Made by a program: the position numbers and the translations under genes. The notes below the pieces were generated by a model. It worked only from the letters and a program-made list of their open reading frames with translations, did no database searches and was not told where the DNA came from. This document shows, piece after piece, positions 16,528 to 26,724 of a stretch of 64,000 nucleotides of DNA. Within the stretch, counting starts at the first letter, position 1. Each line of letters starts with the position of its first letter. The DNA is taken from positions 1 to 64,000 of the IMG/VR virus record IMGVR_UViG_3300047160_002053, one strand, 5' to 3'. Source of the DNA: a virus.

Positions 16528-16664
16528 TTGCCTTCAGGCTCCGTTTTTACGGATGTTTGATATGGCTCGTTGATGGCGCTATCCACGGTCAATGGGCATC
16601 GGTCGTAGGTTCCGCTTTGTTCCTGGCGGCTCTACTTTATGAATTCTTTCAAGAGGTAAAATGA
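16524..16664 (+). CDS. Small membrane protein (46 aa), not in the ORF track
   Basis: ATGA overlap. MIAFRLRFYGCLIWLVDGAIHGQWASVVGSALFLAALLYEFFQEVK. Confidence 0.55.
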   Translation: MIAFRLRFYGCLIWLVDGAIHGQWASVVGSALFLAALLYEFFQEVK

Positions 16665-16777
16665 AACATTTCTTTTTACACTTCCCATTTTGTTTGGTAT
16701 CCTGTACCCTAATCCATCTTGTCGATGCGAAATGGCACCTTTTTGAGCATCTCTTTAGGATTTTAGGAATTCTATGA
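16661..16777 (+). CDS. Small hydrophobic protein (38 aa), not in the ORF track
   Basis: GAGG RBS; ATGA overlaps at both ends (its stop overlaps the dnaE start). Confidence 0.5.
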   Translation: MKHFFLHFPFCLVSCTLIHLVDAKWHLFEHLFRILGIL

Positions 16778-19700
16778 AAATTAGCCCTCATACACACGCA
16801 GAAAGCCCGCTTACCGGATCAACCCTAGGCACCTTGGTTAAACAGGCCAAGAAGCTGGGTCGCACGCATTTTGCCTACACTGATCATGGACATCTTTCTT
16901 CTGCGCTCAAAGCCTACAATCAGGCCAAGAAAGAGGGTCTGAAGTTCATTCCTGGTATCGAAATCTATTTCAAGGACACCGCTTGCCCGCATGTCGCCGG
17001 TACTCCTGCCGACCGTTGTAAATATTTTACAACAACGATCTACGCTCAAGATCAACAAGCCTATCAAAAGCTTTGTCAGATGGTCTCGCGCACCGATATG
17101 CCTACTGTTGAGATCTACGAAGAACGTCAACAGCTATGGCGCTGGGAAGATCTGAAAGAGATCGCCAAATTCAACGTACAGGTCGTCTTAGCTGGCGTCC
17201 ATTGCATGGTTGGTAAGGCAATGCTCGCCGGTAAAGCCGATGTTGCCGAGAAAGTTCTGGTTCAACTCAAAGAAATCTTTGGGGATCGTCTGTCGATGGC
17301 TATTTTGGCTGAGCCGTACCTGAAACAGTTCAACCAAGTAATTCAAATTCATTATGCAGATGGAACCAAGGATTCGATCTTGGCTTCGGATACGGTTTCT
17401 ACCGACAAAGCCCGTAACATTCGTGTCTCTGATCTATTGGAAGCTAAACATCACACGATGATTAAATCCAAGAACTCCGGAATGATGCACACCGAAGTCA
17501 ACAAGGAATTCACTAAGGTCACGCTCCACAAAGGTTTCTTGCCTTTGCCTGGCGGCGATGCGACTTTGAAAGTCAATCGTCTTTATTGCGCTCTTGCCGC
17601 TAAACATAGCATTCGACTCCTAGTCACGGATTACGCATATTACGCTCAAAAAGAGGACAAAATCGTTCAAACAATGCGTCTTGAGGGCAATAATAAGCTC
17701 CAACCTAACTTCCACATGAAAAATGAAGAAGAAGTTATGGAGTATTTGACCAAAACATTGGGAAGATTGCCCGAAGTTGCTGCTGGAATCATCAAAAACA
17801 ATGAGACATGGGCAGAAAAGTTCTCAAATTTCAGTCTTTCATACAAATGGCGTCTTGCCGAAGTTGATGGCTCCGCGATCCAAAAAATCATGGCGATTGT
17901 GAAAGAGAACGGACGTATGAAGTGGGACGATCCCAAGTACGTTGCGCGCCTTAAAGAAGAGATCGACGTTATTCATCGCAACGGCGTATATGACCTTGCT
18001 CCGTATTTCCTGCCTATCCGCGATGTTTTGAATTTCTATAAAGAACAAGGACAGTTGACTGGTCCTGGCCGTGGATCTGCCGGTGGATCTTTGCTTTGCT
18101 ATCTAATGGGAATCACTCAGATCGACCCATTCGATTTTGATTTGCCTTTCCAGCGCTTCTTCTCGATGGTTCGTATTAAAGGGAAAAAGCTTCCCGATAT
18201 CGACGTTGACCTGGAAGAGCGTGAACTTTTGGTTGGTGCTGACGGTCACTCGGGCTATTTGTATGGCCGCTGGGGTAACAAAGCTGCTCAGATCTCCACG
18301 CGCACGACTATTCGTCTTAAATCGGCCATCCTGGACACGAATCGTTATTTTAAGGGCAAGGTCGAGGACTCGATTGCGGCCTTCTCCAAGGGCCTTCCTA
18401 CGCCTCCACAGGGTGTTTCTGACCATCAATTCGTGTTTGGGTACGAAGACACCGACGAGAACCATATCGACGGCCTGATCGAAGTCTCAGAGGAGCTTAA
18501 AAAGTATGCCACAGAGCGTCCGGAAGAATGGGAAATCGTCAGCAAAGCTATGGGTCTCACAAGAGCCTATTCAAAGCACGCCTCGGCATTCGTGATTTCG
18601 GATGAACCTATTCAGAATATTATCCCGACAAAAGACGGTAACATCACCCAGTACGAAGCCAAAGAGACGGAAGAAGCTGGACTGATCAAGTACGACTTCC
18701 TCGTTGTTAAGCAGCTAAAAGATATTCGAGTTTGCCTTGATTTGATCAACAAGCGTAACGGCGTGAAGAAGACCGTGGGCTATTTTGATCATGAAGGTCA
18801 AGAGAATTACATTTGGAAACTTCCGCACGCTCCTGAAGCCTATAAAGCTATCTGGGGTGGCGATACTGAGACGATGTTCCAGATCAACACTGCTTCCATG
18901 AAGCCTTACGTGATCGACATGTTGCCTCAAAACATCATGGATTTAGCTACACTGCTTGCCCTGGTTCGTCCTGGTCCATTGGACTTCATTGATCCGACTA
19001 CAGGTCGCAATATGACCGAAGAATACATGCTTCGTCGTAGGGGTGAATCTGAGCCCGATATTAAAGAAATGGCCGATTTATTGCCAGAAACCTATGGAAT
19101 TTTGGCATTCCAAGAGCAACTTGGTAAGATCGCACGCGATTTGGCTGGTTTTCCAGGTGAAGAAGCTGAACTTTTGCGTGAAAACATGGCCAAAAAGAAG
19201 ATGAAAGCCCTCATGGACATGAAGCCAGCCTTCATGGAAGGCGCTCAGAAGCGAGTTTCGCCTGAGATCGCTGAAAGCATTTGGGAACGAATGGTCACAT
19301 TCGGTCGTTACGGTTTCTCGGTTATCCACGCCGTCGAGTACGCGCACATCACTTACGCTTGTATGTTCCTCAAACACTTTTACAAGCTCGAATGGTGGGC
19401 TGCAGTTCTTACGAATGCTGAAGAAAAAGAGATCACGGGTAAGTTCTGGCCTTACGTGAAAGATATGGTTAGTCCTCCTGACATCAATTTGTCTTCGGAC
19501 ACGATGGCGGTTGACTACGCAAATGGACTTATTCGTTCTAAGATGGGCGTTATCCGTGGCATGGGCGAGAAGACTATTCAGCCAATCGTTGACGGTCGTC
19601 CGTACAAAGATGTGCAGGATTTCGTGAATAAAGGCGTTGCCGGTGATTCTTTGGCCCATAAGCTGATTCACGTTGGCGTTCTTGATTCATTGTTCCCGCC

Positions 19701-20316
19701 TCGCTCGAACCTGATTGAGAAATTGAAAATGTATCAGCAAGCGGTATGCAATCATGAGTTTGCTGAAAAAGTTAAGAAGGCTCAAGAAACTGGCAAGAAG
19801 ATGCGTGCGCTCCAGCCAAAGGAAGGGGTTGTTCCGGAAGAATACCTGAATATCCATCCTGTGAAAGACGCTGCTCTCAAAAAGTCAGTCTTGCCTTCGC
19901 TTCCGATTGATCTTTATAGTCTTGGAGCTAAATATTCGAGCGTGCTTGATAGCTTCAGTGATCGTCCTGCGGTCATGTCGAAAAATGGCTACAGAACCCT
20001 CTTGCTTAATGGCGAGAGACTGCGTAGGCTGGATGAGATGGACGGTCACTCTATTCAAGAGGACATCTACGTTGCAGCTACATGTTTTGTGATTGAAGCG
20101 AAAGAATTTCCATACGCAAAGAACACCAAGCGTGCATTGAAGATGATTCTTGACGCAGATGGCTACGTTTCGGAAAAGGTCTTGTGGCCTGAGTATGAAT
20201 CGGGCAAGCTCGTCTATCCATCGACCCTTAAAAAGGGCGCTATCGTTACCGTCTTCTTCCGCAAGAAAGTGGGACGCAAGGACTTGTCTGTAATGAATAT
20301 AGTGGTGGAGACTTGA
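16774..20316 (+). CDS. dnaE: DNA polymerase III alpha subunit (C family)
   Basis: PHP domain (HTH, TDHG, PGIE), GPGRGSAGGSLLCYLMGIT, PDIDVD, KYDFL, RPGP, FQEQ, YGFSVIHA. Confidence 0.95.
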   Translation: MKISPHTHAESPLTGSTLGTLVKQAKKLGRTHFAYTDHGHLSSALKAYNQAKKEGLKFIPGIEIYFKDTACPHVAGTPADRCKYFTTTIYAQDQQAYQKLCQMVSRTDMPTVEIYEERQQLWRWEDLKEIAKFNVQVVLAGVHCMVGKAMLAGKADVAEKVLVQLKEIFGDRLSMAILAEPYLKQFNQVIQIHYADGTKDSILASDTVSTDKARNIRVSDLLEAKHHTMIKSKNSGMMHTEVNKEFTKVTLHKGFLPLPGGDATLKVNRLYCALAAKHSIRLLVTDYAYYAQKEDKIVQTMRLEGNNKLQPNFHMKNEEEVMEYLTKTLGRLPEVAAGIIKNNETWAEKFSNFSLSYKWRLAEVDGSAIQKIMAIVKENGRMKWDDPKYVARLKEEIDVIHRNGVYDLAPYFLPIRDVLNFYKEQGQLTGPGRGSAGGSLLCYLMGITQIDPFDFDLPFQRFFSMVRIKGKKLPDIDVDLEERELLVGADGHSGYLYGRWGNKAAQISTRTTIRLKSAILDTNRYFKGKVEDSIAAFSKGLPTPPQGVSDHQFVFGYEDTDENHIDGLIEVSEELKKYATERPEEWEIVSKAMGLTRAYSKHASAFVISDEPIQNIIPTKDGNITQYEAKETEEAGLIKYDFLVVKQLKDIRVCLDLINKRNGVKKTVGYFDHEGQENYIWKLPHAPEAYKAIWGGDTETMFQINTASMKPYVIDMLPQNIMDLATLLALVRPGPLDFIDPTTGRNMTEEYMLRRRGESEPDIKEMADLLPETYGILAFQEQLGKIARDLAGFPGEEAELLRENMAKKKMKALMDMKPAFMEGAQKRVSPEIAESIWERMVTFGRYGFSVIHAVEYAHITYACMFLKHFYKLEWWAAVLTNAEEKEITGKFWPYVKDMVSPPDINLSSDTMAVDYANGLIRSKMGVIRGMGEKTIQPIVDGRPYKDVQDFVNKGVAGDSLAHKLIHVGVLDSLFPPRSNLIEKLKMYQQAVCNHEFAEKVKKAQETGKKMRALQPKEGVVPEEYLNIHPVKDAALKKSVLPSLPIDLYSLGAKYSSVLDSFSDRPAVMSKNGYRTLLLNGERLRRLDEMDGHSIQEDIYVAATCFVIEAKEFPYAKNTKRALKMILDADGYVSEKVLWPEYESGKLVYPSTLKKGAIVTVFFRKKVGRKDLSVMNIVVET

Positions 20317-24260: not shown

Positions 24261-24522
24261 TTCATTGATGGTTACTGCACTCGAAGCACTAAAACTCTTT
24301 GTCGATAAAGAGCGAGTCGTAATGAATGGTCAGGTCTACATCAAGTTGGGTACTCATAACCCAAAGATGGAAGACGAAGCGATGTGGCGTATCAATGAAG
24401 CAAAACATGCTTTGGAAGATGTGCCGGAACTGGCGACTCTCATGGAGATTCGTCTTTTGGAAATGAAACAATTTGACGCCCACAAGCGTCTTAGCGCAAT
24501 TAGAGGTACAAAAAATGGGTAA
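24241..24522 (+). CDS. Hypothetical protein
   Basis: GAGGA RBS. Confidence 0.6.
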   Translation: MENEKLDSLMVTALEALKLFVDKERVVMNGQVYIKLGTHNPKMEDEAMWRINEAKHALEDVPELATLMEIRLLEMKQFDAHKRLSAIRGTKNG

Positions 24523-25558
24523 CAAATGGCTCAAGCAACTGCGTGCGTATGATGATGCAGTCAATCCCGAATACGATTCGTATGCGGCTGAAAACTGCCT
24601 TTACACGCCAAGTCCTTATTTTAACTGGATCTTTGCAAACAAGTCGAACGGAATCCCTAAGAATTCGTCGGTCTTGTTCTTCTCCGAGCAAAAGGCCGGT
24701 AAGTCGTTGTCGATCTACGCAATGGTTCTGGAAATGCAACGTCGCGATCCCGAAGGTATTGCTATCGTGTTCAATACAGAACTTCGCGGTGCCTTGCAAG
24801 GCGGTGTGTTCCCTGAGATTGATCAGGATCGCATGATTATTTACGACACAAATCTCCCGCAAGAGATCTTTGACCGTATCGAAAACGACATCAAAGCAAT
24901 GGTTCAAGACGGAATGCCGTTACGGATTCTGGCGATTGACTCCCTTTCTAATATCATTGGGGTTAAACGTGCCAACGCAGAATCGGCTACCGATCACTTG
25001 GTTGGCGACCACGCTCTTACGATTCAGATCGGCTTGTCTAAGCTGGTTCCTTTCTGTAAGCGCAATAAGATCCTTCTGATTGCTACGTCTCAAATGCGTG
25101 ACAAGATGGACGCTTCTAAGTACGAATCCAAGGTCAAAATGGAAGCTTCGTGGGCGACTAAGCACGCTTTCGAGTATTTCATCAGCCTGAAACGCGCTGG
25201 TGCTGCCGAAGACCGTGCCGATATCGAAGGAAAGACCTTTGAGGAAGACATTAAGGATGCTCGTGACAACAAGCTTTTGACTGGTCACAAGATCTACGTC
25301 AAAATGGAAGCCTCATCTCTTGGTCCTCAAGGACGCTCTGGTGTCTTTACTATGGACTACGAAAAAGGCATTATCAATCAACATGAAGAGATCTTCTTCC
25401 TTGGTAAGTCTTGCGGAATCATTACGACTCCGAATAACCGTACCTACAATTACGGCGGCAAGTCTTACAACGGTAAAAAGGAAATGGCGCTTGCCATTCG
25501 AGATGACCAAAAGTTGGCGTCTGCAATCCTCGAAGAAATCAAGAAATTAGACGAATAA
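24515..25558 (+). CDS. RecA/UvsX-like recombinase
   Basis: GIPKNS, Walker A variant SEQKAGKS, FNTE, Walker B LAIDSL, TSQMRDK. Start placed at ATG 24515 after GAGG. Confidence 0.85.
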   Translation: MGNKWLKQLRAYDDAVNPEYDSYAAENCLYTPSPYFNWIFANKSNGIPKNSSVLFFSEQKAGKSLSIYAMVLEMQRRDPEGIAIVFNTELRGALQGGVFPEIDQDRMIIYDTNLPQEIFDRIENDIKAMVQDGMPLRILAIDSLSNIIGVKRANAESATDHLVGDHALTIQIGLSKLVPFCKRNKILLIATSQMRDKMDASKYESKVKMEASWATKHAFEYFISLKRAGAAEDRADIEGKTFEEDIKDARDNKLLTGHKIYVKMEASSLGPQGRSGVFTMDYEKGIINQHEEIFFLGKSCGIITTPNNRTYNYGGKSYNGKKEMALAIRDDQKLASAILEEIKKLDE

Positions 25559-25563
25559 GTTAT

Positions 25564-25750
25564 GTAGCGGCGGCGTTTGTACCGCTGACTTCGCCATTGA
25601 TCCAGAAACAGAGCGAGCGTGGGTGATTACCACAATATCCGCTCTGTGCGAAGCCGTCCTACTGGAGGTTGCCTAAAAGCCCAGCGCGTGGATGACAAGA
25701 TGGACCAGAGAGTACAAGTCCTGGTGCGATAGTCCCGAGGGTTCCGCTAC
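25564..25750 (+). ncRNA. Candidate structured non-coding RNA (~187 nt), family unknown
   Basis: The only long intergenic gap in the + block, and GC-rich. Closing stem GTAGCGG/CCGCTAC, several internal helices, 3' U-rich tract. Confidence 0.65.
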
Positions 25751-25767
25751 TTCTTTTTGAGGAATTT

Positions 25768-26724
25768 ATGAAAATCGAACGTCCACAAGCAGATAGCAAG
25801 AAAATTTCATCGAAGGACGACTTTGAGCTTTGCTATTTGCGTCATCAGTACCTACGCAGAGTGGATTATAACCCAACAGCTGCAGAAATGGCACCCTACA
25901 ATAAGATCGTGTCCATCCAGGCTAGAAAGACCTTCTATGCCTATGCAAATCTGTTCAAGCTTGTTGGCATGGAGTTAGAAGATCTGAATAGTATTGGCCA
26001 TGTTCATCTCGTGAGCTTTCTAGGGCTATATAGCTTTCGCGTACCCGAAAAGCTCCGTGAATTTGTGGTTGCACAGGTCATCAAAACCGGCAAACTTCCT
26101 CCTGCTTGGGTTCAAGACGCAAAAAACAAGGCAAATCTGACTCTGTTCCTGAAACAGCGTATGCAGGATGTCGTCCGTATCTGCCAGCAGAAAGCTCGCA
26201 ATATCAAAGGCCAGCCTACAGAAGAATTCTATGTTTTCTATGGCCCCAAGCGTCCACCAAAGAATCCTCGTGAATTGATCGACAACTACGAGAAAATGGG
26301 CTTTAGAAAGCTCGATATCGCGTCATTTAAGACGATTCGCAAGCGCGTCATGAAGCTTGATGACGAGGATGCGATCACGAAGACCGGCAATCAAGAAAAA
26401 CCATTCGAGATCTTGAAATTCGCAGGTTCATACTATATTTCTGTTCCACTTGACCATCGCGATCTAACTGTTCACGATTTTGCTGGCGCAGACATGGACC
26501 CTTATGATAGTATTCATAATAAGAACCCAGAGCAGTTGTACCTAGAGCAAGCTGACCAGGAACAGTTCGAGGAAAAGAAAGCGAACTTTGATTCCCAATC
26601 AACTAAGCGAAAAGAGACGATTATCAGACACTTCATCCGTAAGCACAAGGGAGATCCTAGGTTTAAGGAAGAATTGCAAACTGCTAGAAAGTTCCTAAAG
26701 GAATTAAGAGCAAATGCTGAATAA
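25768..26724 (+). CDS. Divergent sigma-factor-like protein
   Basis: YNKIVSIQARKTF...GMELEDLNSIGHVHLVSFLGLY...LTLFLKQRMQDVVR resembles sigma region 2; later NPEQLYLEQ. Confidence 0.45.
   Translation: MKIERPQADSKKISSKDDFELCYLRHQYLRRVDYNPTAAEMAPYNKIVSIQARKTFYAYANLFKLVGMELEDLNSIGHVHLVSFLGLYSFRVPEKLREFVVAQVIKTGKLPPAWVQDAKNKANLTLFLKQRMQDVVRICQQKARNIKGQPTEEFYVFYGPKRPPKNPRELIDNYEKMGFRKLDIASFKTIRKRVMKLDDEDAITKTGNQEKPFEILKFAGSYYISVPLDHRDLTVHDFAGADMDPYDSIHNKNPEQLYLEQADQEQFEEKKANFDSQSTKRKETIIRHFIRKHKGDPRFKEELQTARKFLKELRANAE

Follow-up and report, generated by a model that had tools for sequence, protein, structure and literature searches.

Comparison with related phages indicates that, in an uncultured soil phage, the spacer between a UvsX/RecA-like recombinase gene and its downstream neighbour, p2, holds a real, conserved and pseudoknotted RNA without a match in Rfam. 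Judging from its sequence and position, this 187-base RNA may be a cis-acting 5′ leader of p2, which plausibly encodes a sigma-like protein; we give this reading a probability of roughly 0.45, i.e. slightly under one in two. The DNA analyzed (hereafter, the window) is a stretch of 64,000 nucleotides from an IMG/VR virus record of 104 kb, and the features discussed are listed in Table 1.

Genomic setting and the downstream gene

The element belongs to a replication module, marked by DNA polymerase, SbcC-like, primase and clamp-loader genes, in the genome of a large tailed phage, with a DnaB-like helicase gene two genes further downstream of p2. The G+C content of the spacer (53%) exceeds that of the window (46%) and of the remaining spacers (31-48%), in agreement with the initial annotation, which had singled it out as unusually rich in G+C. 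The same annotation had also called it the only long gap in its block of genes. This is roughly correct; however, a crude tiling by ORFs shows another gap of ~246 nt at 16528-16773, upstream of the DNA polymerase gene (16774-20316). Thus, the gap studied here is not the sole long one. A separate tally of spacer lengths based on ORFs was unreliable, as structured spacers contain open frames by chance. There is no Rfam match in that second spacer.

Sequence searches with p2 against Pfam, PHROG and PDB sequences gave no match, and a Foldseek search of its AlphaFold (AF2) model (built from 18 homologues; pLDDT 78) against the PDB returned nothing. VIA-align, on the other hand, superimposed residues 34-147 of p2 on sigma domain 2 of many chains with Z values of 5.4-7.0, which are middling for a helical domain. 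The best of these were the N-terminal domain of SigE (Z 7.0) and sigma70 (Z 6.7), and other matches included SigB, RpoS, sigma32 and ECF sigmas. In addition, a viral cluster found in the ESM Atlas carries Sigma70_r2 in 81% of its members, with a score of 0.94. The earlier description of this gene as sigma-like is therefore backed by the structural match (Z ~7) and by the Atlas cluster, but not by sequence profiles or Foldseek, and we regard it as plausible on the basis of the predicted model. For another ORF of the window that had been called a sigma gene (967-2073), Pfam gave nothing at E ≤ 0.01, and hhalign showed no resemblance between its profile and that of p2.

The p2 family is widespread: it comprises 293 homologues at E ≤ 1e-40, with complete phage genomes of ~165 kb from soils, bogs and freshwater, and the closest homologues (P0002-P0008) share 60-82% identity with p2. 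A conserved, complex RNA directly in front of such a gene, whose product resembles a divergent sigma factor, would be a control point of the phage transcription programme.

Table 1. Positions of the RNA, its parts and the flanking genes in the window
Feature	Position	Strand	Details
Recombinase gene, UvsX/RecA-like	24473-25558	+	upstream gene; phrog_97, E = 2.8e-23
Spacer	25559-25767	n/a	between the recombinase gene and p2
P1, closing helix	25564-25570 with 25744-25750	+	7 bp; same in L069; in L105, 3 of 7 pairs changed on both sides, all pair
P2, hairpin	25571-25587	+	directly 3′ of the P1 5′ strand; stem 25571-25575/25583-25587, loop 25576-25582
P3, helix	25589-25653	+	25589-25594/25648-25653; encloses internal loop 25595-25607 and P4
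P4, variable inner hairpin	25608-25615 with 25640-25647	+	plus GTGG 25619-25622/CCAC 25630-25633
Pseudoknot	25601-25605 with 25662-25666	+	UCCAG in the P3 internal loop with CUGGA
Middle region	25655-25694	+	helix 25655-25659/25690-25694; surrounds CUGG(A) 25662-25666 and second CCAG 25681-25684
P6, hairpin	25704-25725	+	stem 25704-25708/25721-25725, 12-nt loop; stem and loop same in L069
3′ tail and P1 3′ strand	25726-25743 and 25744-25750	+	25680-25750 has 97% identity with L069
U-rich linker	25751-25770	+	Shine-Dalgarno GAGGA 25759-25763; ATG 25768
p2	25768-26724	+	318 aa; N-terminal helical domain resembles sigma region 2 (model)

Fold of the RNA and its conservation in two relatives

All of the complementary segments reported in the initial annotation were recovered where it had placed them. 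They had been read either as a multibranch RNA with a kissing contact between two loops or as a nested rod. In the branched fold, the P6 loop (25712-25718) faces the P2 loop (25576-25582) across 7 bp, one of them G-U, while the rod draws on long-range complementarities such as that of ATCCA (25600-25604) with TGGAT (25689-25693). We also recognized a pseudoknot between the P3 internal loop and the middle region. Its downstream CUGG (25662-25665) has two possible CCAG partners, since the copy at 25681-25684 offers a local alternative to the pseudoknot partner; covariation favours the long-range one (see below). For the switch with two competing folds that the initial annotation had suggested, these CCAG copies are candidate elements.

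For a single sequence, the folding energy is not special. The minimum free energy (MFE) is −65.8 kcal/mol vs. −62.3 ± 4.7 for dinucleotide shuffles (z = −0.75 on the + strand; z = −1.25 on the minus strand), so that the folding-energy comparison proposed in the initial annotation went against the element, and the case consequently rests on its relatives. A loose descriptor of the helices and the kissing contact was discarded as uninformative, as it matched nearly every record scanned.

Scans for the neighbouring proteins in collections of viruses, metagenomes and genomes yielded ~140 loci; this set excludes the contigs of P0002-P0008, i.e. of the closest p2 homologues (60-82% identity). The scan of genome contigs contributed two loci only, both with other types of spacer. 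Conservation and covariation, which had been suggested as a check, were found in two relatives, namely: a close one, L069, and a distant one, L105. As these are the only two loci of the window's subtype in the set, the number of covariation events is small.

At the level of sequence, the RNA could be aligned with that of L069 only (blastn-short, 1.6 Mb of loci). The p2 of L069 is 57% identical to that of the window. The two RNAs share 87% identity overall, rising to 100% over the 5′ 27 nt and 97% over the 3′ 71 nt, and the flanks are less alike than the RNA (68% for the adjacent p2 coding sequence and 61% for the upstream flank); this high identity could partly reflect recent exchange. All of the ~16 substitutions leave the helices of the branched model intact, each being either compensatory or located in a loop. 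Two pairs of P3 carry double substitutions (U-A to C-G and C-G to U-A), and in the middle region C25659 is replaced by U, which keeps a G-U pair with G25690, the remaining changes there being confined to the loop at 25667-25680. P4 (25608-25647) is swapped for a 4-bp hairpin with a GAAA loop and is thus a variable arm. In the pseudoknot, U25601 to C is accompanied by A25666 to G, which gives CCCAG/CUGGG and preserves all 5 bp. That same change at 25601 turns the ATCCA/TGGAT pairing of the rod into a C-A mismatch. As a separate observation, the 125 nt upstream of the RNA in L069 (150-275) hold more GC-rich hairpins and are a possible second structured element; on this short contig there is no recombinase gene directly before them.

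The L105 element (301-447) has the same layout as that of the window and has only short motifs in common with it: a 5′ GGCGGCG, a loop with CCAG, a GAUAG and, ahead of the 3′ end, UUCCGCC. Its correspondence to the window RNA was thus assigned by architecture. P2 is retained in both relatives, with one G-C pair becoming an extra G-U pair in L105, and two pairs of the L105 P6 stem (399-402/416-419) are changed on both sides. The loop-loop pairing of L105 (316-322 with 406-412) differs from that of the window at four of the seven positions and still forms seven of seven pairs. In both RNAs, the partner of the P2 loop is the stretch at positions 4-10 in the P6 loop; a pairing of 7 bp is attained by shuffled loops with P = 0.023 for the window and P = 0.019 for L105. 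A counterpart of the pseudoknot is present as CCAGG/CCUGG (338-342/358-362). Thus, the compensatory changes in L069 and L105 support the multibranch fold with its kissing contact.

The G-U pairs can form on the gene (+) strand only. From the end of P1 to the ATG there are 17 nt (window), 23 nt (L069) and 16 nt (L105), and a U-run follows P1 in all three. In the MFE structure of the window, this U-run and the Shine-Dalgarno GAGGA (together 25751-25764) may form a weak pairing of 5 bp, with G-U among them; the pairing resembles that of fourU thermometers, and several relatives show a similar arrangement of U-run and AGGA. A scan of the flanks found no sigma-70-type promoter and no canonical compact terminator, and therefore the RNA is probably transcribed with the operon. 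On the + strand, the terminator scan was empty; P1 plus TTCTTTTT is a long-range closure rather than a compact hairpin.

The initial annotation had linked the RNA to no known family, and the search of Rfam agrees with this. Searched with Rfam 15, the whole window had no match at gathering score. The sole Rfam alignment at E ≤ 10, to CyVA-1 (RF02965) at 25562-25635, is at the level of chance, with 15.3 bits where the gathering score is 41.4 (E = 1.8). Models of riboswitches/aptamers and ribozymes in Rfam did not match the window RNA, and the 6S models had no match at E ≤ 10 in 25400-25900. ARAGORN called 0 tRNA or tmRNA genes in the window, and the tRNA model RF00005, run over the phage's own genome, matched only 96765-96837 and not 25564-25750; the former is the one canonical tRNA of the phage record (minus strand, 64 bits) and lies outside the window. 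The idea of a Y RNA was dropped, as no TROVE/Ro60 protein was found in the same genome. blastn against GenBank phages gave no match, an exact 20-mer scan of viral contigs gave 0 matches, and a degenerate search with the 5′ pattern returned unrelated GC-rich loci only. The sequencing runs that bear the sequence are soil DNA metagenomes only, with contigs identical to the window and without variants; no RNA runs with the sequence are listed among them.

The same position in other phages

In most relatives, a structured element with paired ends lies upstream of the p2 homologue, in the position occupied by the window RNA (referred to below as the slot), while a minority (e.g. L010, L019, L023, L055 and L092) are without one. 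We refer to one large group of these elements as R1. Its members have a P1 helix (often UUGGCGG/CCGCCAA), a 2-nt linker, a P2 hairpin and a terminal 5-bp hairpin with a loop of 7-8 nt that abuts the 3′ strand of P1; in many members, the P2 loop holds a whole inserted domain. With its 7-bp end stem, linker of 2 nt, hairpin and second hairpin of 5 bp by the 3′ strand, R1 has the layout of a tRNA. In most loci, the 3′ end of the RNA is 15-24 nt from the start codon.

R1 is well supported by covariation. In a MAFFT alignment of 16 sequences, the three helices are 97.8% paired and 14 of 18 pairs are changed on both sides, values that 0 of 500 shuffles reach; slid controls are 18-42% paired. With a covariance model for which eight other members served as the seed, 22 elements were recovered, distributed over 20 loci and invariably on the strand of p2; 14 of the 22 are non-seed. 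When the elements are aligned to this model, 99.4% of P1 is paired and seven of its seven pairs show changes on both sides; for the terminal hairpin, the values are 100% and four of five. R1 is an RNA family absent from Rfam, and it shows that tRNA-shaped RNAs can be reused in phage operons.

Several loci carry tRNAs or tRNA-scoring elements in the slot. A 90-nt element in L091 (1014-1103), which has a 26-nt insertion, scores 35.9 bits against the Rfam tRNA gathering score of 29, and its P1, which is that of the R1 family, is aligned as the tRNA acceptor stem. ARAGORN calls a tRNA-Thr in L120 (1096-1166), and L104 (345-416) has a weak tRNA-Sec-like match with a canonical T-arm. Rfam searches over the window and 26 loci matched only the tRNA-type elements of L091 and L104 and, by chance, one snoRNA. 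Separately, a tRNA-like 3′ module with a 7-bp end stem, a T-arm-like hairpin and a terminal CCA is seen ~110 nt upstream of p2 in L020, L022 and L137; it follows a conserved element that is also found in L024, and ARAGORN does not call it.

Copies of R1 also occur in other arrangements. Tandem pairs of different R1 RNAs stand upstream of the p2 homologue in L013 (3709-3894 and 3902-4052) and L034 (1162-1315 and 1329-1467), an arrangement reminiscent of an array of small RNA genes. The R1 RNA of L099 and of L268 is 0.6-1 kb upstream of p2, with ORFs in between. A second copy in the complete genome G002, which is that of L041 (38690-38834, minus strand; L271 2191-2335), lies in a divergent intergenic region 18 nt before an unrelated 70-aa ORF. 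In L076, L080 and L103, a short conserved element (closed by UUGGG...CCCAA, with GGUUCC and GCGGAUUAA inside) is found between the R1 RNA and the p2 start; this element may be another small structured motif.

The relation of the window RNA to R1 is more distant. With filters off, the R1 model had no match at E ≤ 10 in 25564-25750; nor did it match anywhere in the genome from which the window comes, and nhmmer profiles built from the relatives found nothing in the window. As the model does not detect the window RNA, we do not count it as a member of R1. The model recovers the exact coordinates of the L105 element, though only at E = 0.13, but not the element of L069. The window RNA nevertheless shares with R1 the slot, the strand, the position 15-24 nt before the p2 start, a closing helix followed directly by a GC-rich hairpin, and the 5′ GGCGGCG. 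It differs from R1 in having no 5-bp terminal hairpin next to P1: an 18-nt tail (25726-25743) parts P6 from P1, and no stable hairpin forms there. L105 is a possible intermediate. By sequence and layout, the window RNA may thus be a separate subtype, perhaps distantly related to R1.

For both the window RNA and R1, there is no Rfam family. A 2023 study (PMC10690425) predicted 10,006 structured RNAs in viral contigs of IMG/VR, thousands of them covarying, and this set includes tRNA-like motifs and motifs directly upstream of genes; a search of its text gave no entry linked to a recombinase or sigma context.

Possible functions and comparison with known systems

As a leader of p2, the RNA would be made from the + strand as a compact, pseudoknotted part of the replication-gene operon transcript. 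P1 would tie its two ends together, enclosing P2, the variable P3/P4 arm, the middle region and P6, with the P2 and P6 loops paired to each other and the internal-loop CCAG paired to the downstream CUGG. With P1 closing 17 nt upstream of the ATG, both the U-rich linker and the Shine-Dalgarno sequence would be left single-stranded, and the folded body would set the amount of sigma-like protein. It might do so as a protective or processing module at the 5′ end of the mRNA, as an operator or switch that responds to a bound factor or to competing CCAG/CUGG pairings, or through P1 and the U-run as a weak attenuator.

The R1 spacing, which is 15-24 nt in most loci, is kept even before a different gene, and thus a cis-acting leader module fits this arrangement best. 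On the other hand, the R1 copies distant from p2, the tandem pairs and the tRNAs of the slot mean that a stand-alone RNA gene fits as well as a leader. Such a gene would encode a stable small RNA, descended from or mimicking a tRNA, that an enzyme such as RNase P or RNase E cuts from the operon transcript and that acts in trans, with the site serving as a conserved slot for small RNAs. The tRNA-Thr of L120, the tRNA-scoring element of L091, the tRNA-like layout of R1, and the copies that occur in tandem or are parted from p2 by ORFs all speak for it, and the contact between the P2 and P6 loops of the window recalls, by analogy, the elbow formed by the D-loop and T-loop. Trans action, however, needs no tight spacing to a start codon, and the window RNA itself is matched neither by the tRNA model nor by ARAGORN or R1, and has neither a CCA nor a hairpin abutting the 3′ strand of P1. 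We therefore consider a stand-alone RNA somewhat unlikely, albeit the strongest rival of the leader reading.

The other readings are less probable. The U-run after P1 in the window, L069 and L105, the very high conservation of unpaired stretches and the rivalry of two CCAG copies for one CUGG would suit a riboswitch or attenuator, in which P1 next to the U-run stops transcription before p2 or the alternative pairings switch the fold. Given that no Rfam riboswitch matches, that the terminator scan was empty, that many slot relatives have no U-run and that the architecture varies among relatives more than is usual for an aptamer, such a device is improbable. Small ribozymes are often found at intergenic sites of phage operons. 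The compact pseudoknotted fold, its invariant unpaired nucleotides and its intergenic location in such an operon would be in keeping with a new self-cleaving ribozyme that parts the recombinase and sigma-like mRNAs; with no Rfam ribozyme match and no cleavage-site signature identified, we think it very unlikely. Equally slim is the chance that the spacer has no RNA function, being a DNA-level element (an origin or a recombination site) or a recently exchanged spacer. Its location in the replication module, the unexceptional MFE and the near-identity of L069, which could reflect recent transfer, are compatible with this, but compensatory changes and strand-specific G-U pairs preserve the pairing, and neither repeats nor an AT-rich unwinding element were seen in the spacer sequence. 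The nested rod had been proposed in the initial annotation as a 6S-like decoy of RNA polymerase; in its favour are the length of ~187 nt, the sigma-like neighbour, and ATCCA/TGGAT together with other long-range complementarities. As the rod pairing is broken by the C-A mismatch in L069 and there is no Rfam match, the 6S reading is not supported; the covariation backs the branched pseudoknotted fold instead, and we hold this to be the least probable reading of all.

With regard to known systems, the RNA resembles 6S RNA (RF00013 and variants) in length and in a link to transcription through the neighbouring sigma-like gene, but is branched and pseudoknotted rather than a rod. The leader of the T4 gene 32 mRNA consists of a pseudoknot and an unstructured U/A-rich operator. 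The window RNA is far larger and more complex and has no sequence similarity to it, and p2 is not a single-stranded DNA-binding protein (SSB) by the searches run; what the two have in common is the pseudoknot, a U-rich single-stranded stretch with the ribosome-binding site, and a place in a phage replication/recombination module.

Precedents for tRNA-like structures next to mRNAs are the t-elements of plant mitochondria and tRNA-mRNA co-transcripts, such as that of the E. coli tufB operon. The window RNA, at 187 nt, is unlike a tRNA in having no anticodon arm, T-loop, CCA or hairpin abutting the 3′ strand. It is like tRNAs and t-elements in its 7-bp end stem, the hairpin after the 5′ strand, the contact between two loops and its location just upstream of an mRNA start, to which the tRNA and tRNA-scoring elements in the slot of L120 and L091 can be added. 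One could speculate that the window RNA and R1 have diverged within a single new class of pseudoknotted leaders derived from tRNA, which would couple expression of the sigma-like factor to the tRNA-processing or translation machinery of the host or serve as a new ribozyme or switch; we consider this doubtful. If it is true, large soil phages place tRNA-derived leaders before a sigma-like factor, and occasionally before other genes, and RNase P and tRNA-binding factors are candidate partners in this coupling.
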